Positions 31,876 through 63,815 of a stretch of 64,000 bases of DNA are shown in pieces. Within the stretch, counting starts at the first letter, position 1, and every line of letters starts with the position of its first letter. Source of the stretch: an uncultured delta proteobacterium (GTDB taxonomy: Bacteria > Desulfobacterota > Binatia > UBA9968); contig CAWJZV010000006.1 of assembly GCA_963847445.1 (NCBI GenBank), forward strand, positions 32,001 to 96,000, read 5' to 3'. The position numbers and the translations under genes were made by a program. The notes beneath the pieces are model-generated. The model was given only the letters and a program-made list of their open reading frames with translations, did not search any database and was not told the origin of the DNA.

Positions 31876-32514
31876 ATGTCAAGCCTGGTTTTCATTCTGG
31901 CCCAGGCAGTGGCGCCACTAGGCGGAACACAGGTTCACGGTGGCGAACCGGCGCCGGCGGCGACTCAAAAATATGTCGATGCTGAAACCGCGCAACGCCT
32001 TTATCGAATTATCAAGCCGCTGCTGGCCGCGATGGACCATTCGCTTAGGCCTCGACAGGTGAGCGTTGGCATCGTTGCCGATGACGCCATCAACGCCGCG
32101 AATGGCGGCGGCGGCAAGTTTCTCGTTACCACTGGTTTATTGGCGCGAGCCAATGACGAACAGTTGCGCGGCGTAATGGCGCACGAGATTGCCCACGAGG
32201 ATCTTGGTCATGTCACCAAGCTGAAGACATCGGCAACCGGGACGAATATGGTCTTGCTCGAACAGTTGGCGACGGAAAGCAGCGCGTTAACGCTGATTAA
32301 CGGACCGCTGACTACTTTGAGTTTCACCCGGTCCGAGGAGCTCGACGCCGATCGCCATAGTGTCGCGATTCTGGCGCGCGCGGGGCATCCGGGAGCCGTG
32401 ATCATCGAGACACTGAGCTGGCTGGCAAAAAATTCGGCAAGAGCCGATGGGTTTGTTGCTACCCATTCGTATATTCGCGAACGCATCAAAGCCTTGAAGG
32501 CGATGCCGGGATAG
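31876..32514 (+). CDS. M48 family metallopeptidase (paralog of 28862-29548)
   Basis: INAANGGGG, MAHEIAHEDLGH, ELDAD; GGAGG RBS before ATG 31876. Confidence 0.85.
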   Translation: MSSLVFILAQAVAPLGGTQVHGGEPAPAATQKYVDAETAQRLYRIIKPLLAAMDHSLRPRQVSVGIVADDAINAANGGGGKFLVTTGLLARANDEQLRGVMAHEIAHEDLGHVTKLKTSATGTNMVLLEQLATESSALTLINGPLTTLSFTRSEELDADRHSVAILARAGHPGAVIIETLSWLAKNSARADGFVATHSYIRERIKALKAMPG

Positions 32515-51027: not shown

Positions 51028-51065
51028 TTATTGATCAGGGTCGCCAATAGAGGAAAGGTGCCGTG

Positions 51066-51245
51066 ATGAGCGAAGCCGCTAAAAAATGTATGATCTGTGC
51101 AAAACCTTCCGAGGCTTTGAAGGGCGGCATTTGCCAGCCCTGCCAAGAGCGCATCCGCCGCGAGGCTTTGGGCGAGCAGGCCGGTGTTGCCGACCGCGCC
51201 GAGCGGGAAATCTCGCGCCAGGGAATCGCGCCGATTAAAAAGTAA
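51066..51245 (+). CDS. Small zinc-ribbon protein
   Basis: CMIC...CQPC; GAAAGG RBS. Confidence 0.65.
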   Translation: MSEAAKKCMICAKPSEALKGGICQPCQERIRREALGEQAGVADRAEREISRQGIAPIKK

Positions 51246-51311
51246 TCGACAGATCCGCTGTAATGTCGTGCCAGTGCCCGCAACCGGGATTCCGCAGTTT
51301 AAATTAACCCG

Positions 51312-51512
51312 GGAAAGGGGCAAGCCCGCCGCCGTGATGCGAACGGGCCTGTCTCTAAGTATTTGACCATGGTGGGTCCGGTTAGCGAGTAGGGCAGCGC
51401 AAGCATTGACCTAAAGTTGGGTCGCTTCAACTCTCTGGGTTTACCCGGGCGATTGCCGTTTCCCCACTGGTGGATTTCGGGGTCAATTGCTACGACTCCC
51501 TCCACGCGGCGA
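51312..51512 (+). ncRNA. ssrS: Probable 6S RNA
   Basis: About 190-nt rod: CGCCGTG/CACGCGGCG closing stem, TTGACC/GGTCAA and GTGGG/CCCAC helices. GATGCGAACGGGCCTGTCTCTAAG resembles the 5' arm of enterobacterial 6S as recalled. Confidence 0.65.
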
Positions 51513-51679
51513 TAGCGGCCAGTGCAAATTCTAGTTTTTAGCTGTCCTCATTGCCAAGGACATGTTATAAAACAATATTATCAGATTGCTGAGCGAGAAC
51601 CTTCTGGCTTGGCTTCTAATTAGCGATTGAGAGGTTAAAGGTTCTGCGCTGCCGTCAACTATTTTCTGCCGCGATTAGC

Positions 51680-52852
51680 TTGGCTATTCTGGTTGTTCTC
51701 GTTTCGATCACGCCGCTCTGGTCGTTTACCCCGGAGGACGATCTGACGGCGAAGTCCGCGCTGCTGATGGATGCCGCCACGGGCAGGATCCTGTTTCAAA
51801 AAGAGGCCGACCTGCGGTTACCGCCTGCAAGCACGACCAAGGTGATGACCGCCATTCTGGCTTTAGAAAGCGGCCGCAAGCTCAGCGAAAACCTGACGGT
51901 ATCTAAAGACGCCACGCGCGTGCCGCCTTCCAAGTTGTACTTGCGCCCTGGGCAGACGCTGCCCATCGAAGAGCTGCTCTATGCCATCATGCTCGCTTCG
52001 GCCAATGACGCCAGTGTGGTCTTGGCCGAAGGGATCGGCGGATCGGTGGAACGCTATACCGATCTCATGACCAAAAAAGCCCATAGTTTGGGTGCCACCA
52101 ACAGTCATTTTACCAACCCTCATGGTCTGACGGCGCCGGACCATTATTCGACGACGCGCGATCTGGCGACGATTTTTCGCTACGCCATGAAGATTCCGCT
52201 GTTTCGTGAAATCGTCCAGACCAAATTCAGCTCGGTGAACTCGCTGGCGGTGATAAAAAAGAAAGTCGTGCCGCGCCGCATCTCGGTGCGCAATCATAAC
52301 CGGCTGTTATGGGACTACGAAGGCGCTCTGGGAGGCAAGACTGGTTACACCCACGCGGCGCAACGTTGTTATGTCGGCGCGGTGCAGCGCGACGGCGCGA
52401 CACTGATCGTGGCGATCTTGGGCGCCACCAATATGTGGAGCGACGCCAAACACCTGCTCGCATACGGCTTTGACAATTACGAGACCCTCAAGTCCGCGTC
52501 GCAGACCACGCAAAAGCCGGTATTCAGCGAAGGCTCGTCACGCCAACGGATCTCGACGGTCATCCTACCCGGCGATAATCCGCGGCCTAAATCTCTCGAC
52601 GGCTTCGTATTGCAAGTCGGTTCGTTCCGCGAACGGGAACGCGCCGAATTGCTGTCACGGCAGATTAACGAGCTGGGTTTCGACGCGTTTATCGATGTCG
52701 CCGAGGCGGGCCGGAACGAAGCCGCCTATCGCGTCCAGGTGGGCCCCTATGCCGAACTGGTGGCCGCTCAGGAAGTCGCTCAAGTCCTCCTCGCCAAAAA
52801 CGGCCAGCGGTCATTGATCCGGCAATTCCCGGCAGCGCGCGAGGGCAGCTGA
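51680..52852 (+). CDS. D-alanyl-D-alanine carboxypeptidase (S11) with C-terminal SPOR domain
   Basis: ASTTK (SxxK), SAN (SxN), KTG; LQVGSF...YRVQVGPY. Confidence 0.92.
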   Translation: MAILVVLVSITPLWSFTPEDDLTAKSALLMDAATGRILFQKEADLRLPPASTTKVMTAILALESGRKLSENLTVSKDATRVPPSKLYLRPGQTLPIEELLYAIMLASANDASVVLAEGIGGSVERYTDLMTKKAHSLGATNSHFTNPHGLTAPDHYSTTRDLATIFRYAMKIPLFREIVQTKFSSVNSLAVIKKKVVPRRISVRNHNRLLWDYEGALGGKTGYTHAAQRCYVGAVQRDGATLIVAILGATNMWSDAKHLLAYGFDNYETLKSASQTTQKPVFSEGSSRQRISTVILPGDNPRPKSLDGFVLQVGSFRERERAELLSRQINELGFDAFIDVAEAGRNEAAYRVQVGPYAELVAAQEVAQVLLAKNGQRSLIRQFPAAREGS

Positions 52853-52865
52853 GCGAGAGCGCTGA

Positions 52866-53600
52866 CTAAAGCTCAAGCACCATCCCATCGTCGGCAACCA
52901 CAGCCGATATTTCATTTCTACGCGATAGCATTTCTTCGCCCAGGTGGGTGAGGACGAGCTGCTTGCAGCGCAAACGGTCGAGGTTGGCTGTTATGGCCTG
53001 ATAGTTGACATGCATGCCGGGCTGCTCGCTAAAAAACGAACATTCGCAGAGAAACAAATCGACGCCGCGGGCGTGCTCGATGAAACTCTCGGTCCACAGC
53101 GAATCGCCGGAAAACAAAATCTGTTTGCCGTCATAGCCGACCTTCAAGGCTAACGAAATCTCGTCGGTTTGGTGCGGCACGCGAAAAGGCACGACTTCAA
53201 TGCCGTTGACGTTAGCCGGTTCGTCAGGATGCAAGACCATAAAGCGCGTCGGCGGAATCTCCTTGTCATTGGTCGTCCCGCCATACATCAATTGGAACAG
53301 CGCGCGGACTTTCACTTCCGTCCCCGGCGGGCCGGCAATCACCAGCGGTTCGAGTCTGGGCCGGAGATACAAATACTCGATGAAGAAAAATGCAATGCCG
53401 CCGAAATGATCGCCATGCAAATGGCTCAGAAGGATCGTATCGATGCGCCGTGGATCGAAGCCGGCGCGCTTGAGCGCCAATAAAGTCGTCGGCCCGCAGT
53501 CGAGCAGAAATATCTTGTCCGCAGTTTCGACAAGGTAGCCGCTCTGATTGCGCCCGCCGCTGCCAAAGGCATCGCCGCAGCCGAGAATGTGCAGTTTCAT
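52866..53600 (-). CDS. MBL-fold metallo-hydrolase (RNase Z/BN-like)
   Basis: LGCGDAFGSGG, SHLHGDHFGG, FSGD, LTH. Confidence 0.9.
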   Translation of the reverse strand: MKLHILGCGDAFGSGGRNQSGYLVETADKIFLLDCGPTTLLALKRAGFDPRRIDTILLSHLHGDHFGGIAFFFIEYLYLRPRLEPLVIAGPPGTEVKVRALFQLMYGGTTNDKEIPPTRFMVLHPDEPANVNGIEVVPFRVPHQTDEISLALKVGYDGKQILFSGDSLWTESFIEHARGVDLFLCECSFFSEQPGMHVNYQAITANLDRLRCKQLVLTHLGEEMLSRRNEISAVVADDGMVLEL

Positions 53601-53738: not shown

Positions 53739-54191
53739 GTGGCAGAAGTCAAGCGGCCGTTTTTCACCTCTTATAGCACTAGCCTTTGGGTTCGTTTTCT
53801 CCGTTTTGGTTTGCATTCGCACAAGAAGCTTGAGGACGACTTGCAAGAATTAGGGCTGACACCGCCGCAATTCTACGTGCTGGCGACCATCGGCTATGCT
53901 GGCAGCCTGCCCTTCGGCGAGATCGGCGCGAAAATGTTGGTGACGGTGAGCAATCTCACCGGCATCGTCGACCGGCTTGAGGGTAAAAAATTCGTCGCGC
54001 GCAGGCGTGACGAGAGGGACCGCCGGGTCGTCCATGTGATGCTGACCGACAGGGGCGCCAAACTTTACAAGAGCACGATTCCGTTATTCGAAAAATGCGT
54101 CGGCGAAATCTTCGCCGGGCTGAGCAAGGCCGAGCAGAAACAGCTGTCGGCGCTGCTGCGGCAGCTCGATCATGAACCCGTGGCGAAGTAA
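53739..54191 (+). CDS. MarR family transcriptional regulator
   Basis: GLTPPQFYVL, TGIVDRLE, R.RD.RDRR...V.LT..G. Confidence 0.93.
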   Translation: MAEVKRPFFTSYSTSLWVRFLRFGLHSHKKLEDDLQELGLTPPQFYVLATIGYAGSLPFGEIGAKMLVTVSNLTGIVDRLEGKKFVARRRDERDRRVVHVMLTDRGAKLYKSTIPLFEKCVGEIFAGLSKAEQKQLSALLRQLDHEPVAK

Positions 54192-54287
54192 CCGACGGGC
54201 GGCGATGCACGCGCCGTAATCTCTCAATATCGATCTGGGTATTCATTCTTTAGAAGGCGGAGGTCAGACGGATGATGCGCCGTTTGA

Positions 54288-54331
54288 TTGACACCGAATA
54301 TGGGCAAGTTATAACAGTTTATACTTTAACT
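54288..54331 (+). promoter_or_regulatory. sigma70 promoter with adjacent AT-rich inverted repeat (candidate MarR operator)
   Basis: TTGACA (54288)-16 nt-TATAAC (54310); AGTT-N8-AACT at 54316-54331 over the predicted start site. Confidence 0.6.
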
Positions 54332-54354
54332 AATTTTCTTCGGCGTTAATTTTC

Positions 54355-55569
54355 ATGGCAGACGAAAACAACAAACCGCTGGGACTCGAACGAGTTAAAA
54401 AATGGCTTTATGCCAAGGGACTCGACGAGCGCAGCAGCGGCTGTGTGCTTTGCGGGTCGTGCTATGGCCATGGGCCGGCCAATCCGATGGAGGATGTGCC
54501 TGGGCCGAAAGAAAAATGTCCACCCTATGAGTACTACAAATTTCAGCGTCACACGCCGAAATCGCGCTGGCTGATGGCGCAGCGGGTGTTTCATGGTCTC
54601 GATCCGATCACGCCGGAGCTGAAAGAGGTAATGTACGCCTGCACAAACTGTCTGATGTGCCAGGAACTCTGCGGCGTGCGCGGCGATGGTTACGGGCCAT
54701 GGGATATCACCGTGGCGATGCGCGAGGAAATCACCGAAAAAGACGGTCCGTTGCCGGCGCACCGGCCGATTTACAATGGACTCCAACAACATGACAGTCC
54801 TTGGGGGCAAACCACGCGCGGCGCATGGGCCGCAGGCTTGGGACTAAAACAACTCAGCGACGGCAAAGCCTCGACGCTACTATTCGCCGGCTGTTCGGCG
54901 GAACGCGCCAGCGGCAAGAGCGGCGCCATCGCACTGGCCAAGTTGATGCAAAAAGCCGGTGAGGATTTCGCGATACTCGGCGATCGGGAAAAATGCTGCG
55001 GCCTGTACGCCTTCGATCTCGGTTTCCGCCGCGAGTATGAACGTTTGAAAGACACCAATTTGGCGACGTTGACGCAAGCGGGCGTCAAGAAAGTGGTCGT
55101 CGCTTGCGGCAGTTGCCAACGCATCTGGCGCGAGTACGCCAAAGAAGCGCAAGGCTTTGAAGTTATCCATGGAGTCGAGTTTGTCGCCCAGGCGCTCCAA
55201 GCCGGCCAGCTCAAATTTACCAAGCCGATCGCCAAGAAAGTAACTTACCACGATTCTTGTCACCTCGGCCGCGGCTGCGGGGTTTACGATCCGCCGCGGC
55301 AAATTCTCCGGGCGATTCCTGGCCTGCAACTGGTCGAGATGGAGCGCAACCGGCGCTGGGCTTGGTGTTGCGGCGGCGGTGGCGGCGTGCCCGAAGCCGA
55401 TCCCGATTTAGCCCAGTGGAACGCGACGGACCGCATGCGCGAAGCGCATGCCAGCGGCGCCGAACTGATGCTGACATCGAGCGCGCTGTGCCAACGGTCC
55501 TTCGGCGAGTTGCCCGATGGCGGGCTGCCGACCGAAGATTTACTCGAATTTATTTTACCGGCGCTTTGA
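54355..55569 (+). CDS. Fe-S oxidoreductase, GlpC/HdrD-like (4Fe-4S motifs plus CCG domains)
   Basis: CVLCGSC, CTNCLMCQELC, FAGC, EKCCG, ACGSC, YHDSCHLGR, CCGGGGG. Confidence 0.9.
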   Translation: MADENNKPLGLERVKKWLYAKGLDERSSGCVLCGSCYGHGPANPMEDVPGPKEKCPPYEYYKFQRHTPKSRWLMAQRVFHGLDPITPELKEVMYACTNCLMCQELCGVRGDGYGPWDITVAMREEITEKDGPLPAHRPIYNGLQQHDSPWGQTTRGAWAAGLGLKQLSDGKASTLLFAGCSAERASGKSGAIALAKLMQKAGEDFAILGDREKCCGLYAFDLGFRREYERLKDTNLATLTQAGVKKVVVACGSCQRIWREYAKEAQGFEVIHGVEFVAQALQAGQLKFTKPIAKKVTYHDSCHLGRGCGVYDPPRQILRAIPGLQLVEMERNRRWAWCCGGGGGVPEADPDLAQWNATDRMREAHASGAELMLTSSALCQRSFGELPDGGLPTEDLLEFILPAL

Positions 55570-55581
55570 TTTTTCAATCTT

Positions 55582-56316
55582 ATGGTTAAAGAACCGCACT
55601 TCACACCGCAACGGATGCTCAATATGCTCGGGCTCAAGCCGAACTCGCTCGGCCCCTACGCGCTGGTCCCCGGTCCGAAGGAACGCAGTGAGATGATGTT
55701 GAAACTCTTGGACGAGCCGCAAAAGAGTTTCACTTTCCTCGACTACGAGATGCACACCGGCGGGCTCGACGGCAAGCGCGTCAGCATCGGTAACGGCGGC
55801 CGCTACGCGCCGGACACGGCGATTACCACCGAAATTCTTTGCGGCGCCGGCGCGGAATCTTTGATCCGTGTCGGCAGCTGCGGTTCGCTGCAAGACCACG
55901 TCAAGATCGGCGACCTGGTGATCGTCACCGGCGCCCTGCGCGGCGACGGCACCTCGCGCTACTATGTCGCCGAGAATTTTTCCACTGTGGCTAACGCTAG
56001 TATTGTCGTAGCCTTGAAGCGGGCGGCGGAGGATTTAAAAGTCCGTTATCATCTTGGCTGGATCTTCACCACCGATGCATTGTTTCAAGAGACGCCGGAA
56101 CTGATCGACCAACTGAACCAGCAAAACGTTGCGAGCATCGACATGGTGACCTCAACCTTCTTGACCATCGCCCAGGTGCGCGGCAAAAAAGCCGGCGCGG
56201 TGCTGGCGGTGTCGGATGAATGTCTCTATGGCAAGTTCGGCTTTCGCGATCCGGTGTTTTTCGCAGCCGAGCAAAAGACCATCGAAGTGGCGCGCCAAGC
56301 ACTCCAATACCTTTAG
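55582..56316 (+). CDS. Nucleoside phosphorylase (PNP/UDP NP-I family)
   Basis: LVPG...R, IRVGSCGSL, GDGTS..Y, TTDALF.E, IDM, LAVSD. Confidence 0.88.
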   Translation: MVKEPHFTPQRMLNMLGLKPNSLGPYALVPGPKERSEMMLKLLDEPQKSFTFLDYEMHTGGLDGKRVSIGNGGRYAPDTAITTEILCGAGAESLIRVGSCGSLQDHVKIGDLVIVTGALRGDGTSRYYVAENFSTVANASIVVALKRAAEDLKVRYHLGWIFTTDALFQETPELIDQLNQQNVASIDMVTSTFLTIAQVRGKKAGAVLAVSDECLYGKFGFRDPVFFAAEQKTIEVARQALQYL

Positions 56317-56342
56317 CCATCTCTTTTCATTGAGCTAAGAAA

Positions 56343-57860
56343 ATGAGCGTCGTCCAAAGTCCGCTGTTTGAACCGGTTCTATGGCACGATGGCGGCTTCA
56401 AGATTCTCGATGAGATTCAAGTCCCGCAAAAACTCGAGTACATTGAAGTGACTGAGGTCGTCCAGGCGCTCGATGCCGTGCGCGAAATGAGGACCCGCGC
56501 CTACGGCCAGGTGCTGACCTTTCTCTACAGCAATGCGCTGGTGGCGCAGCAATACCCGGGCGATGACCCGGCGCCGCTGCGCCTGCGGTTGGCGCAGTTA
56601 ACCCAGCAATTTTGCGACGTCCGTCCGACCTTCGATTTTCGCAGTCTCGGCGGTTGCGTCGCTGAGTTTTTCGACAAGTTACCGGCTAATGGCCCAGTCG
56701 GCGAAACTATCGCGCGCCAGGCGCGGGAGTTCGGCGGTCAAATCACCCGGGCGCGCAGCGCCCGCGCTAAACGCACCGCTGCGATCCTGCCCAATCCGGC
56801 GCGGGTGTTGACCCATTGTAACATCAGCGGCGAATTGGTCGCGGTGGCTGCTTACTGCAAAGAGCTCGGCAAAGAGTTTTCTGTCATCGCCACCGAAACC
56901 CGGCCGTACTTGCAGGGCGCGCGGCTGACCGCCTGGGAGCTGGCTCAAGCTGGCGTGCAAGTATCATTGATCCCCGACTGTGCGGTGGCGCAGGTGATGG
57001 CCCAGGGCGAAGTCAACGCGGTGATCGTCGGCGCCGACCGGGTGGCGCAAAACGGCGATGTCATCAACAAAGTCGGCACCTACCCCATCGCGCGCATGGC
57101 CAAAGTGTACGGCGTGCCGTTTCACGCATTGGTGCAAGATCCGCGTTCGCTCACGCGCGGCGCCGATGTGGCCATCGAAGAGCGGCCGGCCGAGGAACTA
57201 TTAGTCTACCATGGCCGCGCATTGGTCGCCGGCGAGCAAGCGCATCTCAAAGTGCGCTATCCATCGTTCGATCTGACGCCGGAAGAGTTTATCACCAACT
57301 ATGTCGGCCTGGACGGTCTCTATACACCGGCAACCTTTCGGCTGAAATACCAGGCGGGAGCCGCGGTTGATGCGAGGGTGGCGCGCGCCGGCGCAAAATA
57401 TTTGCTGATCTACGGCGTGCCGCCGCCGAGCCAATACGCTTTTTTGCTCAGCGCGTTGAAGGCGGAGAGAGCTGAGAGCTTTTTGGTTCCCGAAATGCGC
57501 CCGGAGCTGTGGGGCGCGCGTTTGATCGTAGCAGAATTGCTCAAGCGCAATGCCCCGACCACGGTGATTTCCGACAACATGATGGGCACGTTGTTCGCGC
57601 AGGGAGAGATTGGCAAGTTATGCTTTTTCTATGACAACTTGGCGGCCGCGGGACCGCAAGGGATTTGCGGTTCGCTCTTGGCGGTGCAGCTAGCGCATTT
57701 GCATGGTGTCCCCATCGAGCTGTTTAGCGGCGAGGGTCGCAAAGAATCGACTCATGATAGCGACGTCACGACCTTTCTCGGTGAGCCGATTTGTCCGGCC
57801 GGAGTCGCGGTACGAGCAGTCGGGTCGGAAGCGGTGCCCTGGGGTTTATTCAAAAATTAG
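56343..57860 (+). CDS. MtnA-like ribose-1-phosphate isomerase (eIF-2B fold) with an extra degenerate C-terminal copy of the fold
   Basis: LTHCN, ETRPYLQGARLTAWEL, VGADRVAQNGDVINKVGTY, IEER; second copy EMRPELWGARL..EL, ISDNMMG. Confidence 0.88.
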   Translation: MSVVQSPLFEPVLWHDGGFKILDEIQVPQKLEYIEVTEVVQALDAVREMRTRAYGQVLTFLYSNALVAQQYPGDDPAPLRLRLAQLTQQFCDVRPTFDFRSLGGCVAEFFDKLPANGPVGETIARQAREFGGQITRARSARAKRTAAILPNPARVLTHCNISGELVAVAAYCKELGKEFSVIATETRPYLQGARLTAWELAQAGVQVSLIPDCAVAQVMAQGEVNAVIVGADRVAQNGDVINKVGTYPIARMAKVYGVPFHALVQDPRSLTRGADVAIEERPAEELLVYHGRALVAGEQAHLKVRYPSFDLTPEEFITNYVGLDGLYTPATFRLKYQAGAAVDARVARAGAKYLLIYGVPPPSQYAFLLSALKAERAESFLVPEMRPELWGARLIVAELLKRNAPTTVISDNMMGTLFAQGEIGKLCFFYDNLAAAGPQGICGSLLAVQLAHLHGVPIELFSGEGRKESTHDSDVTTFLGEPICPAGVAVRAVGSEAVPWGLFKN

Positions 57861-57873
57861 CTAAGGTTTACCT

Positions 57874-58869
57874 GTGGTTAAAATTGACAGTGAAATGATA
57901 CGCTGGGGCGAGCGGCTCTTCGAGCGCCGGCTGATCAGTGGCTGGGGCGGCAATCTGAGTTGCCGTGTCGGGGAAAACGATTTCCTCATCACCGGCCAGC
58001 ATGCGCCGCTCGGTTTCTTAACGAGGAAAGATTTGGTGCGTATCCACGCCGACGGCAAACCGGTCAAGAAAAGCCAGCGCGCTTCGAGTGAAACGCCGAT
58101 GCATTTGGCGGTCTACGCCGGCACCGACGCTCAGGCGATCGTCCATGTGCACCCGCCGATGGTGCTGGCGTTCTCGTTGTCGCATGACAGCTTCGCGCCC
58201 CTCAGCTATGAGGAGAAGTACACCATCGGCAACGTGCCGGTGATTTCCCAGGACACGCCGACGGTGACCAAACCGGAAGCGGTGGTCGAGGCGCTTAAAT
58301 ATCATCCAGTCGCGATCATCAAAGGCCATGGCACGGTGGCGATCGGCAAAACTTTTCAAGAAGCGTTTCTCTACACCGACCTGCTCGAAGAAGCGGTGCA
58401 TTGCCAATTCTTTCAAAGCGGTATCGGCGCGGAGGGTAAGGTTGATGCGCGCTTGACCGAGCCGGTCACGGTTAGCGCCGCGGTGGGGGAAGCCTACGAG
58501 CTTTTCTCGCACGAACACATGACTGCGCTGGTCGACAGCGCCAACGGCGACCGCGACTTTCGCCAATTTGCCAGCGACACCAGTCTGACGACGTCGCTGA
58601 GCTTGCACATGGAAAATAATGACGTGGCCTGGACCGTGCAGTTCGTCGCCGGCGAGATTACCGCTTTAACCGATAATTCCGGCGGCGATTTTCTCATCAG
58701 CGGTAACGCCGAATGGTGGCGCGCGGTGTTCAGCAATAAGATCGATGCATTTTTAGCGACGCAGCAAGGTAAGTTGAAACTCAAGCGAGGCGAACTGGCG
58801 CAGTTATCGCGCTGGTACAAACCATTTCAGAGGGCATTTGCGCTATGGCAAACCATACCGATTCACTAG
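57874..58869 (+). CDS. Class II aldolase/adducin domain fused to an SCP2 sterol-carrier-like domain
   Basis: GGNLS, SSETPMH, HVH, GHG; C-terminal DFLISG..E.W..V....ID...A..QGKLKL.G.L. Confidence 0.85.
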   Translation: MVKIDSEMIRWGERLFERRLISGWGGNLSCRVGENDFLITGQHAPLGFLTRKDLVRIHADGKPVKKSQRASSETPMHLAVYAGTDAQAIVHVHPPMVLAFSLSHDSFAPLSYEEKYTIGNVPVISQDTPTVTKPEAVVEALKYHPVAIIKGHGTVAIGKTFQEAFLYTDLLEEAVHCQFFQSGIGAEGKVDARLTEPVTVSAAVGEAYELFSHEHMTALVDSANGDRDFRQFASDTSLTTSLSLHMENNDVAWTVQFVAGEITALTDNSGGDFLISGNAEWWRAVFSNKIDAFLATQQGKLKLKRGELAQLSRWYKPFQRAFALWQTIPIH

Positions 58870-60374
58870 GTTTTTACGCCGCTGAAGTTTTACAGCGGAC
58901 GGCGGCGCGCCAACCGGACAAGACCGCGATCATCGCCAAGGAAGAGGAGCTGACTTTCGCCGCGCTCAATCAGCGCGTACAGGCGCTGGCCGGCCACTTG
59001 ATCGCAGACGGCATCCGCCAAGGCGATCGGGTCGGCGTGCTCTTGCCCAACTCCACGGCGATACCGCTCGCTTATTATTCAACGCAGAAGATCGGCGCCG
59101 TGACCGTGATCCTCGACGCCCGCTTGAAGGGCAAAGAGCTAGAAGGCGTGTTGCAGGACGCCGATTTGAAACTGTTGGTGGTGCACCAAACTCTTTATTC
59201 GGAAGTCGAAGAGATTTTTAAAACTATCGCGCCGATCCCGGTTTGGATCGCCGGTGGCACGGGCGAGCGCGGTTTCGAGCATCGTTTCACCGCTACGGCT
59301 GGCGCGACGTACCTGCCAGAGCTCAAGCCTGACGACGATGCTTTGATACTTTATACCTCCGGCACCACCGGCGAGCCCAAAGGCGTGGTGCTGTCCTATC
59401 GCAATCTGCTGCAGTATCCCAAGGTGATGGGCGCGATGAACGTCTGCGATGCCACGACGATGCGTGGCTGCGTACTGCCGATGTCGCATATCGTCGGTCC
59501 GGTGGTGTGTAACGAGTTAGCGGAAAAGGGCTACACGCTGGTGATCTTCGATCAGATCAATCCGGTTACTTTGCTCGAAGGCATTCAAAAATACCGCGTC
59601 AATGTTTTCGAAAGCGTGCCCATCGTGTTTCAGCTTTTGCTCGGTGTGAAAAACTTGGCTAGCTACGACACCAGCAGCATGAAGATCGCCGCGATGATGG
59701 GCACGAGCATTCCGATGCCGCTGTTGCGCGCGTTCCAAACCGCCCAACCGCATATCAAAGTCATCCAAGGTTACGGTCTGACGGAAACGTCGCCGATGAT
59801 CACGCTGGTCGAGCCGGAAAAAGCGGAAGCCAAGATGGGCAGCATCGGCCGCGCCGTACCGGGCGTGGAAGTGAAGATCGTCGATGACTACGACAAGGAA
59901 GTGCCGGTCGGCGAAGCGGGAGAAATCATCACCCGCGGCCCCCATATCATGAAAGGTTATTTTCGCCGGGCCGATGCTACGGCGCAACGTATCCGCAACG
60001 GCTGGCTCTATACCGGTGATGTCGGCAAGGTGGAAGCGGATGGCTACTACTATCATCTCGGCCGGCGCGACGACATGATCATCACCGGCGGCTTGAACGT
60101 CTATCCCGCCGAAGTGGAGAATTTGATTTACACCTATCCTGGCGTGCAGGAGACCATTGTCTTCGCCATCCCCGATGCCAAGCGCGGCCAAGTGATCGGC
60201 GCCGCGATTGTACAGCGGCCGGGCGCGACGGTGGTCGAAAAAGAGCTGCTGAGTTTTCTGCGCGCCAACCTGGCGAATTTTAAAGTGCCCGACCAGATCG
60301 TTATCCGCGAGTCGCTGCCGCGCACCTCGTCGGGCAAGACGATCCGCGATGCGGCGACGCTGCTGGGGAACTAG
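58845..60374 (+). CDS. Acyl-CoA synthetase (class I adenylate-forming, long-chain fatty acid-CoA ligase-like)
   Basis: YTSGTTGEPKG, GYGLTE, YTGD, GR.DDMII.GG.NVYP.EVE, PRTSSGK. Confidence 0.93.
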   Translation: MANHTDSLGFYAAEVLQRTAARQPDKTAIIAKEEELTFAALNQRVQALAGHLIADGIRQGDRVGVLLPNSTAIPLAYYSTQKIGAVTVILDARLKGKELEGVLQDADLKLLVVHQTLYSEVEEIFKTIAPIPVWIAGGTGERGFEHRFTATAGATYLPELKPDDDALILYTSGTTGEPKGVVLSYRNLLQYPKVMGAMNVCDATTMRGCVLPMSHIVGPVVCNELAEKGYTLVIFDQINPVTLLEGIQKYRVNVFESVPIVFQLLLGVKNLASYDTSSMKIAAMMGTSIPMPLLRAFQTAQPHIKVIQGYGLTETSPMITLVEPEKAEAKMGSIGRAVPGVEVKIVDDYDKEVPVGEAGEIITRGPHIMKGYFRRADATAQRIRNGWLYTGDVGKVEADGYYYHLGRRDDMIITGGLNVYPAEVENLIYTYPGVQETIVFAIPDAKRGQVIGAAIVQRPGATVVEKELLSFLRANLANFKVPDQIVIRESLPRTSSGKTIRDAATLLGN

Positions 60375-60388
60375 CTCGGAATTCTGGC

Positions 60389-60506
60389 CGCAAAGATCGC
60401 AAAAAAGAATGTCATTCGAGCGAAGAGAGAAATCTTTGTGAGAAACCTCGGATTGGGATGACGGGCTTTGCCCGTCACTTGGCGTCTTTGCGCCTTTGCG
60501 GGAGAA
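60389..60506 (+). repeat. Palindromic intergenic repeat, copy 1
   Basis: GGATGACGGGCTTTGCCCGTCACTTGGCGTCTTTGCGCCTTTGCG core (from 60456) with a partial CGCAAAG left arm. Confidence 0.8.
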
Positions 60507-60524
60507 ATTTCTTAACTGGGTCGA

Positions 60525-60854
60525 ATGAAGAAAGCCAAGACTAAGGTCGTCGACAGCGGCGAAGAGCTGCTGGCGACGTTTACGAGCGCGGCGGGGATCA
60601 TTCTCGCTGTCACCGAGAACCGCAATTGGATCGAAGTGTTTTTCGACGGCGTGATCATGCACACCGAGACCGTCAATCTGCCGGCGGGCAAGCTCTTCAA
60701 TATCTACGTCGAAGAGATCGCGCATAAGTCGACGGTTTACGAGCATCCGCGCACGATGATCTATTTCGACGGGCCGTACGATCTGCGAATGACGCGCGAC
60801 GGCGATCGGGTGATCGTCACCGGCACGCCCAACCCACGCGAGAATACGGCGTGA
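60525..60854 (+). CDS. Hypothetical protein (109 aa, beta-rich)
   Basis: Codon usage like its neighbours; lies between repeat copies 1 and 2. Confidence 0.75.
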   Translation: MKKAKTKVVDSGEELLATFTSAAGIILAVTENRNWIEVFFDGVIMHTETVNLPAGKLFNIYVEEIAHKSTVYEHPRTMIYFDGPYDLRMTRDGDRVIVTGTPNPRENTA

Positions 60855-60867
60855 AGGCTCGGATTAT

Positions 60868-60964
60868 CTCTCGCAAAGGCGCAAAGACGCAAAGGTAGAG
60901 AAGTTTCCTCGGCTCTGGATGACGGGCCTTGCCCGTCACTTGGCGTCTTTGCGCCTTTGCGGAG
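60868..60964 (+). repeat. Palindromic intergenic repeat, copy 2
   Basis: CTCTCGCAAAGGCGCAAAGACGCAAAG pairs with CTTGGCGTCTTTGCGCCTTTGCGGAG; inner TGACGGGC-CTT-GCCCGTCA hairpin. Confidence 0.85.
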
Positions 60965-61010
60965 TAATCTCCTAATCCGATGTCTCTATCTTACCGTGGT
61001 GAGTAAATCT

Positions 61011-61731
61011 ATGACAACCTGGCCGGCAGCGCCTGCCGAACTTCCGGCGCTTGAACGGACCGTCCATGTTTGGGCGGTGCCGTTAGATGACGCGCGTGTC
61101 GATCTCGACGGCGGGCGGGAGCTGCTCTCGCCGGACGAGCGCGAACGCGCGGCGCGCTTTCATTTTGAACAGCACCGGCGGCGCTATCTGATTGCCCATA
61201 TCGCGCTGCATAGGATTCTCAGCCGCTATTTACAGATTGACCCGGCGCGACTGTCATTTCGAACTTGGCAGCAACGGCAAGCCCAAGCTGCCACCGGTGC
61301 TGGCGCCGGCCGGCGTCGACTTCAATCTCTCTCATTCCAACGAAATGGCTTTGCTCGCGGTCAACCTCATCGGCGAGATCGGTGTCGATATCGAGTACGT
61401 CAAACCCGACTTCAAGTTCGAGGAGATCGCCGAGCGATTTTTCACGGCGCGAGAAGTAGCGGCGCTGCGCGGACTTCCATCCGAGCTGCAGCGCCAAGCG
61501 TTTTTCAAATGCTGGACCTGTAAAGAGGCCTTTCTCAAAGCCAAGGGCACCGGGCTATCAGGCAAGCTGGATGAGGTGGAAATCACTCTTGGCGCTGCGG
61601 ATCAAGTACTGATCCGCGCAGACGTGCCCGGTTGGTCACTCGCCGAATTGAATTCCATCGACGCTTACCAAGCCGCGCTCGTGGTCGCCGGCTCCTCGGT
61701 ACCCATCCGATACTATCTCTGGCAGCCGTAA
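61011..61731 (+). CDS. Sfp/HetI-type 4'-phosphopantetheinyl transferase (frameshift near 61258)
   Basis: LSPDERERAARF, GKPKL, FNLSHS, IGVDIE, WTCKEAFLKAKG.GL. Confidence 0.9.
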
Positions 61732-63120: not shown

Positions 63121-63453
63121 ATGACTCACTTGGCGCGAGAAGCTCATAATAGAGAAATCGATGGGGCACGTGCGCGGGAGATCGCGCGCGAGGTTGCCAA
63201 ACTTGCGCGATCGCTGCTTGGCGAAAACACGCAGGTGATCTGGTTTGGTTCTTGGCCCCGTGGCAAGGCGGTGGCTCACTCGGACATCGATGTGGCGGTT
63301 TCGATTGGCATACCGATTCCCGCGGAGCGCATGGCGTTGCTGCACGATGCTGTCGACGACATCGCGACGCTTTATGAAATCGATTTGCTTGACCTTGGCT
63401 CCGCTGGTCCGGGCTTGCGCGACGAAGTTCTAAAACATGGGGAACGACTGTGA
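63121..63453 (+). CDS. Minimal nucleotidyltransferase (MNT) antitoxin
   Basis: FGS..RG.....SDID; EIDLLDL; GERL C-terminus. Confidence 0.9.
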   Translation: MTHLAREAHNREIDGARAREIAREVAKLARSLLGENTQVIWFGSWPRGKAVAHSDIDVAVSIGIPIPAERMALLHDAVDDIATLYEIDLLDLGSAGPGLRDEVLKHGERL

Positions 63454-63815
63454 CTAAGCGGCGTCAGGCGTTAGCTTCGGCGCTCGCTCGCCTGCGCGAG
63501 GTCTTGGCACAGCCGGAAAACGACGTGAGCCGTGACGCAGCGATTCAACGCTTCGAGTTCTGTTTCGAACTGGCTTGGAAGGCGATTCAAGAGCAGGCGC
63601 GAGACGAGGGCATGGACTGTCAGTCGCCTAAGAGCTGTTTAAAACTCGCCTTCAAAAACTCTTGGATCCTTGACGAACCGGCGTGGCTGGCGATGCTGGT
63701 GGATCGTAATCAAACCTCGCATACCTACGACGAAGCCCTCGCCAAGGCGGTCTATAGTCGCCTGCGCGGTTACCTGCCACTGTTTGAAGATTTAACGAAT
63801 AATCTTGCGGCGTAG
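63450..63815 (+). CDS. HEPN toxin / HI0074-family nucleotidyltransferase substrate-binding protein
   Basis: DAAIQRFEFCFELAWK; RNQTSH (Rx4H); 4-nt overlap with the MNT gene. Confidence 0.92.
   Translation: MTKRRQALASALARLREVLAQPENDVSRDAAIQRFEFCFELAWKAIQEQARDEGMDCQSPKSCLKLAFKNSWILDEPAWLAMLVDRNQTSHTYDEALAKAVYSRLRGYLPLFEDLTNNLAA

Follow-up and report, generated by a model that had tools for sequence, protein, structure and literature searches.

The dihydroxyacetone phosphate (DHAP) shunt of Rhodospirillum rubrum and extraintestinal Escherichia coli consists of MtnP (or MtnN together with MtnK), MtnA and Ald2. The DrdK/DrdI/DrdA system of Bacillus thuringiensis is described, in the available part of the source, as a 5-deoxyribose disposal pathway in which an isomerase and a class II aldolase act on a 5-deoxypentose 1-phosphate (PMC6079011). 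In the hopanoid side-chain pathway, the radical S-adenosylmethionine (SAM) enzyme HpnH adenosylates a lipid and the NP-I family enzyme HpnG removes the adenine; the accessible portion of the source names this pair as the sole lipid adenosylation route (PMC13459092). Elements of these systems recur in a window of 64,000 nucleotides (positions 32,001 to 96,000 of contig CAWJZV010000006.1, GenBank assembly GCA_963847445.1) from an uncultured member of the class Binatia, whose genome (G000; 7.19 Mb, 91.8% complete) is, like all genomes considered here, metagenome-assembled. Downstream of a MarR-family regulator gene, the window carries an operon of five genes for a CCG-type iron-sulfur (Fe-S) protein, a nucleoside phosphorylase, an MtnA-like isomerase, an aldolase fused to an SCP2 domain, and an acyl-coenzyme A (acyl-CoA) ligase. 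As far as the available descriptions of the DHAP shunt go, the operon would share with it the logic of phosphorolysis to a 1-phosphate, aldose-ketose isomerization by an IF-2B/MtnA-type enzyme, and cleavage by a Zn-dependent class II aldolase, with DHAP and an aldehyde bearing the 5' group as products.

The operon is real, conserved and unstudied, and a DHAP-shunt-type sequence of reactions is the probable chemistry of its gene products. The complete proposal developed below, that such a module acts on a purine nucleoside with a hydrophobic 5' substituent, is tentative, and it is preferred here to the rival explanations that are weighed alongside it. The genome samples were drawn from larger groups, and absences hold for the genomes searched.

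Conservation of the operon and its promoter

Six plus-strand open reading frames (ORFs) span positions 53739-60374, and the five operon genes occupy 54355-60374 (Table 1). The gaps from the MarR gene onward are 163, 12, 26 and 13 nucleotides, and the ligase gene begins inside the aldolase gene, with 25 shared nucleotides, an overlap that is kept in relatives. A scan of close relatives, with one genome per species, yielded 45 loci, nearly all in genomes labelled Candidatus Binatia or "delta proteobacterium", among which protein identity falls to approximately 55-60%. The synteny that the earlier note had suggested looking for was found: all five genes that follow MarR occur in the same order in 37 of the 45 loci, and because of this shared order the arrangement is more than chance. 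Seven of the eight remaining loci are cut by contig ends; in the last one (L039) MarR leads straight to the phosphorylase gene, without a CCG gene. Synteny alone could be inherited and not selected, since two genes upstream of MarR, for an MBL-fold protein and a Dac-SPOR protein, are also conserved.

The aldolase-SCP2 fusion was found in 33 of 41 genomes sampled from the GTDB family of the window (f1, the family sample), including 16 of the 17 high-quality ones; two of the carriers (G350 and G354) are unpublished, and without both the count is 31 of 39. The operon of a sister-family genome, G193, comprises MarR, phosphorylase, an isomerase with the C-terminal extension described below, an aldolase that lacks SCP2, and ligase, with no CCG gene. 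Another sister family (G327, G283; loci L138, L139) has a pair of phosphorylase and unfused aldolase genes, with neither isomerase nor ligase. The unfused aldolases of L138 and L139 are 57-62% identical in the aldolase domain, and the L138 pair adjoins TctC, Amidohydro_2, SDR, glycine-reductase-B-like and TauD genes.

The earlier note had described five tightly spaced, co-oriented genes behind one sigma70 promoter; its gene list was right, and the promoter is conserved in the spacers of related loci. The promoter (-35 element at 54288-54293, -10 element at 54310-54315) lies between the MarR and CCG genes, so that the MarR gene itself sits upstream of it. When 34 MarR-CCG spacers were aligned, 26 showed the pattern TTGACA-N15-18-TATAA[ACT] and 32 a looser form of it. 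A default promoter scan returned no promoter ahead of the operon genes (2 sites, where 3.4 were expected), because it demands T at the last -10 position, and it gave no useful terminator result. At the same aligned place, 19 of the 34 spacers have a palindrome of the form GTTWA-N4-7-TWAAC, which in the window forms a putative MarR operator; bound to this palindrome, which overlies the transcription start, MarR would keep the operon repressed until it binds a ligand. The MarR gene, whose product matches PF01047 at 60 bits (cut-off 24.6) and reaches no NCBIfam equivalog, is kept beside the operon in the Binatia loci and in G193. RNA runs contained at most 0.09 of the sampled words and yielded only short contigs of 90-100% identity, which do not show transcription of the operon.

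Table 1. Features of the operon and its immediate surroundings, in window coordinates.
Feature	Position	Strand	Details
MarR-family regulator	53739-54191	+	150 amino acids; PF01047
Sigma-70-type promoter: TTGACA, 16 nucleotides, TATAAC	54288-54315	+	Read directly, and from spacer alignment
Imperfect palindrome GTTTATACTTTAAC, candidate MarR operator	54317-54330	+	Directly downstream of the promoter, at the transcription start
HdrD-like CCG Fe-S protein	54355-55569	+	404 amino acids; PF02754 in two stretches (100.5 bits), PF13183 (Fer4_8)
NP-I (hexameric-type) nucleoside phosphorylase, divergent clade	55582-56316	+	244 amino acids; PF01048 (PNP_UDP_1), 108 bits
MtnA-like aldose-ketose isomerase domain	56343-57332	+	IF-2B family, 179.6 bits; whole gene 56343-57860, 505 amino acids
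Partial IF-2B repeat, C-terminal half-domain of the isomerase	57348-57857	+	PF01008 piece, E 1.1e-5
Zn class II aldolase domain	57874-58422	+	PF00596, 136.9 bits, residues 7-178; whole gene 57874-58869, 331 amino acids
SCP2 lipid-binding-type domain fused to the aldolase	58495-58866	+	Structure match and homologues
ANL-family acyl-CoA (or acyl-carrier) ligase	58845-60374	+	509 amino acids; PF00501, 282 bits; PF13193, 62 bits
Sfp/HetI-type phosphopantetheinyl transferase, possible sixth gene	60957-61731	+	Split over two frames; operon membership uncertain

Catalytic core, SCP2 domain and ligase

The three central enzymes form the DHAP-shunt-like core that the earlier note had recognized, a phosphorylase with an MtnA-type isomerase and a Zn class II aldolase, and their catalytic residues are intact. 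The phosphorylase scores 139 bits against the NCBIfam model TIGR01718 (cut-off 280) and 94 bits against DeoD. Its residues R35 and R96 and the pair S211-D212 are invariant in all 38 members; R35 and R96 are the two phosphate-site arginines, and the Ser-Asp pair resembles that of the purine enzymes. In uridine phosphorylases, the Glu of the D-M-E-T-S motif binds the ribose hydroxyls; relative to the PDB uridine phosphorylases (4lnh), Val189 replaces this Glu in 37 of the 38 members. The enzyme is not of the MtnP/MTAP family that opens the DHAP shunt, and the operon contains no kinase; the canonical MTAP of the same genome (320 bits, over its cut-off) is encoded on another contig.

The isomerase also remains below the thresholds of its nearest models (TIGR00512, 193-221 bits, cut-off 279; PRK05720, 244 bits, cut-off 271). 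Its Cys159 and Asp232 are shared by all 43 sequences compared and align with a conserved Cys and Asp of Bacillus subtilis MtnA (2yrf), presumably the catalytic pair of that enzyme. Relative to the canonical MtnA of G000, the module isomerases have a deletion of seven to eight residues right after Cys159, and the operon protein carries approximately 170 extra C-terminal residues that correspond, by a weak match, to a partial second IF-2B domain. In many of the distant loci considered below, this half-domain is a separate ORF of approximately 160 amino acids before the aldolase gene (for example L063, 7517-7996); in another group of them it is missing entirely. The canonical MtnA of G000 (442 bits) is encoded on another contig, beside glutamate-cysteine ligase. 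Five of five distant carriers, from other classes of the phylum, likewise have a canonical MtnA (426-444 bits), and in four of the five a second, module-type paralogue (153-163 bits) lies beside the fusion gene. Because carriers also keep the canonical enzyme, the operon is, as judged from sequence, a specialised paralogous module and not housekeeping salvage.

The aldolase domain resembles the Ald2/DrdA type of Zn class II aldolase in family, residues and predicted fold. All 25 members keep residues E73, H91, H93 and H152, and the structural matches in Foldseek include Thermus FucA (2fk5, E 4e-16) and DrdA (6btd, 6btg; E 7e-13, with a template modelling (TM) score of 0.82 on the target and 22% identity).

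With such a set of enzymes, ordinary nucleosides might be degraded from ribose 1-phosphate through ribulose 1-phosphate to DHAP and glycolaldehyde, which would then be oxidised and activated, in what would be a shortened, bacterial version of the archaeal non-carboxylating pentose bisphosphate route. Uridine phosphorylase is the best NCBIfam match of the phosphorylase, the aldolase has a weak match to the ribulose-1-phosphate aldolase model NF053831 (68 bits, cut-off 300), and a faint GlcF match of the CCG protein points in the same direction. The isomerase, however, is nearer to MtnA structures (E 1e-39 or better) than to ribose-1,5-bisphosphate isomerase (E 1e-17), and this route accounts neither for the SCP2 domain and the FadD-type ligase nor for the surrounding radical SAM and fatty-acid genes; its probability is considered small.

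The SCP2 domain that the earlier note had placed on the aldolase stays below the Pfam cut-off in the operon protein itself (C-terminal 147 amino acids, E 0.0018, 19 bits against 21.3), and its fold is confirmed by homologues and by modelling. PF02036 is matched by 17 of 25 full-length fusion homologues (best E 3.9e-8), and the AlphaFold model of residues 205-331, with a predicted local distance difference test (pLDDT) score of 94.5, matches Thermus SCP2 (2cx7; TM 0.83-0.85, E 1.4e-8), followed by UbiJ-SCP2 and then by the C-terminal domains of alkylsulfatases. In the model of the full-length fusion protein (pLDDT 92, predicted TM score 0.87) the aldolase domain ends near residue 183, and SCP2 appears to stand in place of the C-terminal stretch of FucA-type aldolases. 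This tail closes over the aldehyde site in FucA. The SCP2 domain is kept throughout the fusion family, down to 23% identity.

The ligase falls below every equivalog and subfamily cut-off (PRK06187, 425 bits against 476); its nearest PDB entries are feruloyl-CoA synthetase and FadD13, and it carries the motif YGLTE. An antisense ORF that overlaps its gene (59517-60746, minus strand, 409 amino acids) has no family match and is taken as spurious in GC-rich DNA. Of the 45 Binatia loci, 22 encode a homologue of the phosphopantetheinyl transferase after the ligase, and in 19 of these the distance is at most approximately 700 nucleotides. Because this gene follows the ligase, the acid may be loaded on a carrier protein instead of CoA. 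In the window, the transferase gene consists of a HetI-like N-terminal part (60957-61523) and an ACPS domain (PF01648; 61192-61731), and the split is probably an assembly frameshift. Other split genes in G000 are those for a UPF0182 protein and for the radical SAM enzyme treated below, and these frameshifts, too, are probably assembly errors; since the UPF0182 gene (L135, 11755-14518) forms two ORFs in G000 and a single ORF of 900 amino acids in a relative of the same genus (L142), indel errors in the assembly of the window are suggested.

Distant loci, radical SAM enzymes and the predicted substrate

A phmmer search of 1.84 billion representatives returned approximately 25 full-length, two-domain aldolase-SCP2 homologues at 23-46% identity. 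The only taxon names attached to them come from one Syntrophaceae protein and from an Atlas cluster with few labelled members, most of these Myxococcota; the Atlas labels Candidatus Binatota and Myxococcota were both assigned from few members. Metagenome contigs were scanned with six distant fusion homologues, which gave 80 loci whose ORFs were clustered and the clusters annotated; as many of the contigs measure just 1-5 kb, the neighbour counts are minima. An MtnA-like isomerase was found in 59 of the 80 loci, an aldehyde dehydrogenase (PF00171) in 50, a phosphorylase in 42, a ligase in 35, a B12-binding radical SAM enzyme in 24, a PanE/ApbA-like reductase in 21, and a pair of FabF-like ketosynthases in 19. 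Further neighbours are a TIGR04076 protein, ACP, PadR, AccA, a putative cyclase, SRPBCC, an MFS transporter, SDR and amidohydrolase, together with a LolA-like/DUF1329-DUF1302 pair in two loci; the small ORF clusters c9 and c10 have no family match. The usual order is PadR, ligase, phosphorylase, isomerase, the ORF for the C-terminal part of the isomerase, aldolase-SCP2, aldehyde dehydrogenase, radical SAM enzyme, and fatty-acid-type genes. MarR occurs in none of the 80 loci, where a PadR regulator is found instead, and neither does the CCG protein; the invariant module therefore consists of phosphorylase, isomerase, aldolase-SCP2 and ligase.

The CCG protein is an addition specific to one lineage: it is confined to one Binatia family, and it is absent also from L039 and from the G193 operon. 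It consists of two CCG domains and a 2x[4Fe-4S] ferredoxin domain, with the cysteine motifs visible in the translation. Its family matches are to the HdrD/TfrB/GlpC types, DsrK and HdrB; the best of ten NCBIfam matches, all of them below cut-off, is TfrB (136.8 bits against 385), and a PDB search returned only an "iron-sulfur-binding reductase" (9ojn) and HdrB. Members of the CCG families usually serve as electron-transfer or disulfide-reductase subunits alongside a partner, and the operon encodes neither a flavoprotein nor a membrane partner. The earlier note had proposed that the aldehyde released by the aldolase is oxidised by this Fe-S protein and then ligated to CoA. Oxidation followed by activation agrees with the aldehyde dehydrogenases and ligases of the distant loci; the assignment of the oxidation to the Fe-S protein is not supported, given the distribution of the protein, its sub-threshold family matches and the missing flavoprotein partner.

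The CCG protein would have a use in sulfur salvage from a 5'-thio nucleoside, in which a 2-(alkylthio)acetaldehyde would be oxidised and CoA-activated, and the CCG protein of Binatia would perform reductive C-S or disulfide chemistry. Reactions of thiols and disulfides are familiar from proteins of the CCG/HdrD type, in keeping with the TfrB, DsrK and HdrB matches, and G000, without MtnB and ARD, has no classical route from methylthioadenosine to methionine. Against this stand the restriction of the CCG protein to one family, with none in any distant locus or in G193, and the lack of a role for SCP2; the scheme is also purely inferential. It is judged improbable, to nearly the same degree as the degradation of ordinary nucleosides.

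The radical SAM enzyme that clusters with the distant module is B12-binding and BchE/HpnJ-like (211 and 161 bits, far below the cut-offs), with remote PDB matches to CysS, TokK and OxsB (E 8.2e-11 or weaker). In a sample of 201 genomes of the class (the class sample), orthologues with E 1e-60 or better were found only in 13 genomes of the window's family and in G193, at 38-44% identity and over the full length where the gene is intact; the best match in any other family has E 3e-54, and G329, which has a weak match, is unpublished. These genomes represent exactly the two operon-bearing Binatia lineages in the class sample, and the orthologue is absent from all 11 genomes of the sister family with the phosphorylase-aldolase pair. 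Taken together, the clustering in distant loci and the coincidence in two Binatia lineages make an association between module and radical SAM enzyme suggestive, though not proven. The G000 orthologue lies on contig 7 at 51038-52499 (L135, 9021-10536, minus strand), where a frameshift splits it into two ORFs, and its neighbours are an SDR, a FAD_binding_4 oxidase, a haem-oxygenase-like protein and an O-methyltransferase; across four Binatia genomes, nothing in the neighbourhood of this gene is conserved beyond the genus. A different radical SAM gene beside the ligase in five distant loci encodes the housekeeping RlmN (381 bits, cut-off 290) and was set aside as a chance neighbour.

These observations are consistent with the following sequence of reactions. 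The phosphorylase would strip the purine base from a 5'-modified nucleoside and yield a 5-substituted ribose 1-phosphate, which the MtnA-like isomerase would convert to the corresponding ribulose 1-phosphate; the Zn aldolase would then cut between C3 and C4, releasing DHAP and an aldehyde that bears the 5' substituent. The aldehyde would be oxidised to an acid, in the distant clusters by the aldehyde dehydrogenase, and the ligase would turn the acid into a thioester. Most likely this substituent is hydrophobic; it would be held by the tethered SCP2 domain, and the module as a whole may be linked in function to a single family of B12-binding radical SAM enzymes. A hydrophobic group is favoured because SCP2 is kept across the fusion family and replaces the C-terminal stretch of FucA-type aldolases; because the ligase is of the FadD13/feruloyl-CoA type with YGLTE; because lipid-handling proteins (SRPBCC, LolA-like/DUF1329-DUF1302, the FabF pair, ACP, AccA) are encoded nearby in distant loci; and because the regulators are of the MarR and PadR types.

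The radical SAM association is explained most economically by another substrate: the module could be dedicated to the disposal of 5'-deoxyadenosine, and perhaps of methylthioadenosine, that the associated B12 radical SAM enzyme would produce in large amounts. The product would pass from 5-deoxyribose 1-phosphate through 5-deoxyribulose 1-phosphate to DHAP and acetaldehyde, and from there through acetate to acetyl-CoA, which would feed the neighbouring FabF enzymes in the distant clusters; SCP2 would be accessory, for example in localisation. This chemistry is established in the DHAP shunt and the 5-deoxyribose pathway, as far as the available parts of the sources describe them; an aldehyde dehydrogenase with a ligase would suit a cell that has to clear a toxic aldehyde; no other MtnB or Ald2-like match exceeds its cut-off in G000; and the G193 operon manages without SCP2. 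A second set of salvage enzymes would, however, be redundant beside the MTAP of G000 and the canonical MtnA of G000 and of all five distant genomes, the active-site regions of phosphorylase and isomerase are remodelled, and a merely accessory SCP2 domain sits uneasily with its conservation down to the most divergent homologues. Acetyl-CoA synthetases have an acetate-gating Trp; the operon ligase is of another type, with its feruloyl- and FadD13-like affinities, and the best matches of the distant aldehyde dehydrogenases are betaine-aldehyde and phenylacetaldehyde types. Disposal of 5'-deoxyadenosine is accordingly regarded as unlikely, yet as the most serious rival to the preferred explanation.

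Several observations also weigh against a module that handles a hydrophobic nucleoside in concert with a radical SAM enzyme. The G193 operon implies that SCP2 is dispensable, and a search of G193 with this domain as query found no stand-alone SCP2 homologue. Neither MtnB nor ARD reaches its cut-off in G000, where the best MtnB-like match is the operon aldolase, for which reason this aldolase could also serve ordinary salvage. Homologues of the aldehyde dehydrogenase, the radical SAM enzyme and the ketosynthases were not found within the 8-kb flanks of the 45 Binatia loci, so that the oxidation step lacks an assigned enzyme there, and the radical SAM gene is unlinked in Binatia and has no conserved neighbours. 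Within the window's family, fusion and radical SAM gene (36 of 41 genomes) are both near-universal, which makes their co-occurrence uninformative, and the pattern between lineages rests on two lineages only. Finally, no enzyme that makes the substrate was found, and the clustered radical SAM enzyme is not of the adenosylating HpnH/MqnE type.

If an adenosylating enzyme is nevertheless involved, whether the clustered B12 radical SAM enzyme or another, the module might serve chain extension. By analogy to the action of HpnH on diploptene, a radical SAM enzyme would transfer the 5'-deoxyadenosyl moiety of SAM onto a carbon atom in a lipid chain, whether fatty-acyl, polyketide or other; the aldol cut would leave -CH2-CHO, which would become -CH2-COOH and then a thioester, and the adduct would in this way be trimmed to a C2 thioester for elongation by FabF. 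The ribose of SAM would then be a C2 donor for C-C bonds in lipids, with DHAP returned to glycolysis. Such a role is improbable, although less so than the sulfur-salvage and ordinary-nucleoside routes.

The lipid nucleoside singled out in the earlier note was adenosylhopane, which would be cut to DHAP and the C32 hopanoid aldehyde and then yield bishomohopanoic acid. The chemistry would be formally identical to that proposed for the module, SCP2 could hold a triterpenoid, and adenosylhopane from other soil organisms might be taken up, though nothing supports uptake. Co-occurrence of the operon with shc and hpnH, suggested in the earlier note as a check, does not extend to most carriers. G000 has neither HpnH (42 bits, cut-off 225) nor SHC (23 bits, cut-off 431); in the family sample, SHC is over cut-off in nine genomes and HpnH in seven, all of them fusion carriers, so that 24 of the 33 carriers lack SHC and 26 lack HpnH (22 and 24 of 31 when G350 and G354 are left out). 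Five of five hopanoid-positive carriers have an HpnG-like gene (161-182 bits) as the immediate neighbour of shc, whereas their operon phosphorylases score 24-35 bits to HpnG, comparable to the window's own (25.5 bits to TIGR03468, cut-off 187); the distant clusters, moreover, have fatty-acid or polyketide and not hpn contexts. Because of the carrier counts and the separate HpnG-like genes, endogenous adenosylhopane is not the general substrate. A hopanoid substrate of any kind is very unlikely, and the route from adenosylhopane to bishomohopanoic acid is the least probable of the explanations weighed here.

Among the neighbouring genes, that for the MBL-fold protein (52866-53600, minus strand) diverges from MarR and encodes an RNase Z- or cyclic-nucleotide phosphodiesterase-like protein with all matches below cut-off; beyond it lies the gene for a D-Ala-D-Ala carboxypeptidase with a SPOR domain, Dac-SPOR (51680-52852, plus strand). 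Both are syntenic in most Binatia loci and were considered as members of the system, but were rejected; the MBL gene is not beside the phosphorylase in G327. Further downstream, at 63121-63815, adjacent genes for a Polbeta-type nucleotidyltransferase (110 amino acids) and an NTase_sub_bind/HepT-like protein (121 amino acids) have the layout of an MNT-HEPN toxin-antitoxin pair.

Significance and comparison with known systems

The module spans Binatia, which are common in soils, and other uncultured lineages. Should its substrate be a lipid-linked or otherwise unusual nucleoside, it would represent a new branch of the metabolism of SAM by-products or SAM adducts, and the fusion protein would be the first aldolase with a tethered lipid carrier. 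Since the distant module lies within fatty-acid and polyketide clusters, knowledge of the substrate could also reveal what a whole class of "orphan" lipid gene clusters makes; the accessible part of one source mentions, under ladderane biosynthesis, B12 radical SAM/FabF clusters without assigned function (PMC13459092). Even the plain 5'-deoxyadenosine explanation would, if true, introduce a new design principle, in which a single high-flux radical SAM enzyme has a salvage unit of its own.

The statement of the earlier note that no described pathway has this gene set agrees with a full-text literature search, which found no paper describing either the set or the aldolase-SCP2 fusion; in the available portion of PMC6302742, CoA ligase, acyl-CoA, sterol and aldehyde dehydrogenase are not mentioned. 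No SCP2 domain fused to a sugar-phosphate aldolase appeared among the PDB matches or in the literature searched.

In comparison with the DHAP shunt, the operon has a divergent, hexameric-type NP-I phosphorylase in place of MtnP and an isomerase that falls below the MtnA cut-offs and differs by its loop deletion and its extra half-domain; it adds the SCP2 fusion, the ligase, a transcription factor, and a CCG protein (in Binatia) or an aldehyde dehydrogenase (in the distant clusters). The Drd pathway is entered through a kinase, whereas entry into the operon pathway would be by phosphorylase; DrdA has no SCP2 domain, and the Drd pathway has no acid activation. The hopanoid side-chain pathway differs in that no isomerase or aldolase step is known there; the operon phosphorylase, in turn, remains far below the HpnG cut-off, in a genome without HpnH and SHC. 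The SCP2 domain of the fusion protein, finally, has the same fold as UbiJ-SCP2 (6h6p) and the SCP2 domains of the alkylsulfatases SdsA1 and Pisa1 (2cfu, 2yhe); in these proteins, it presents a hydrophobic tail to its catalytic partner.

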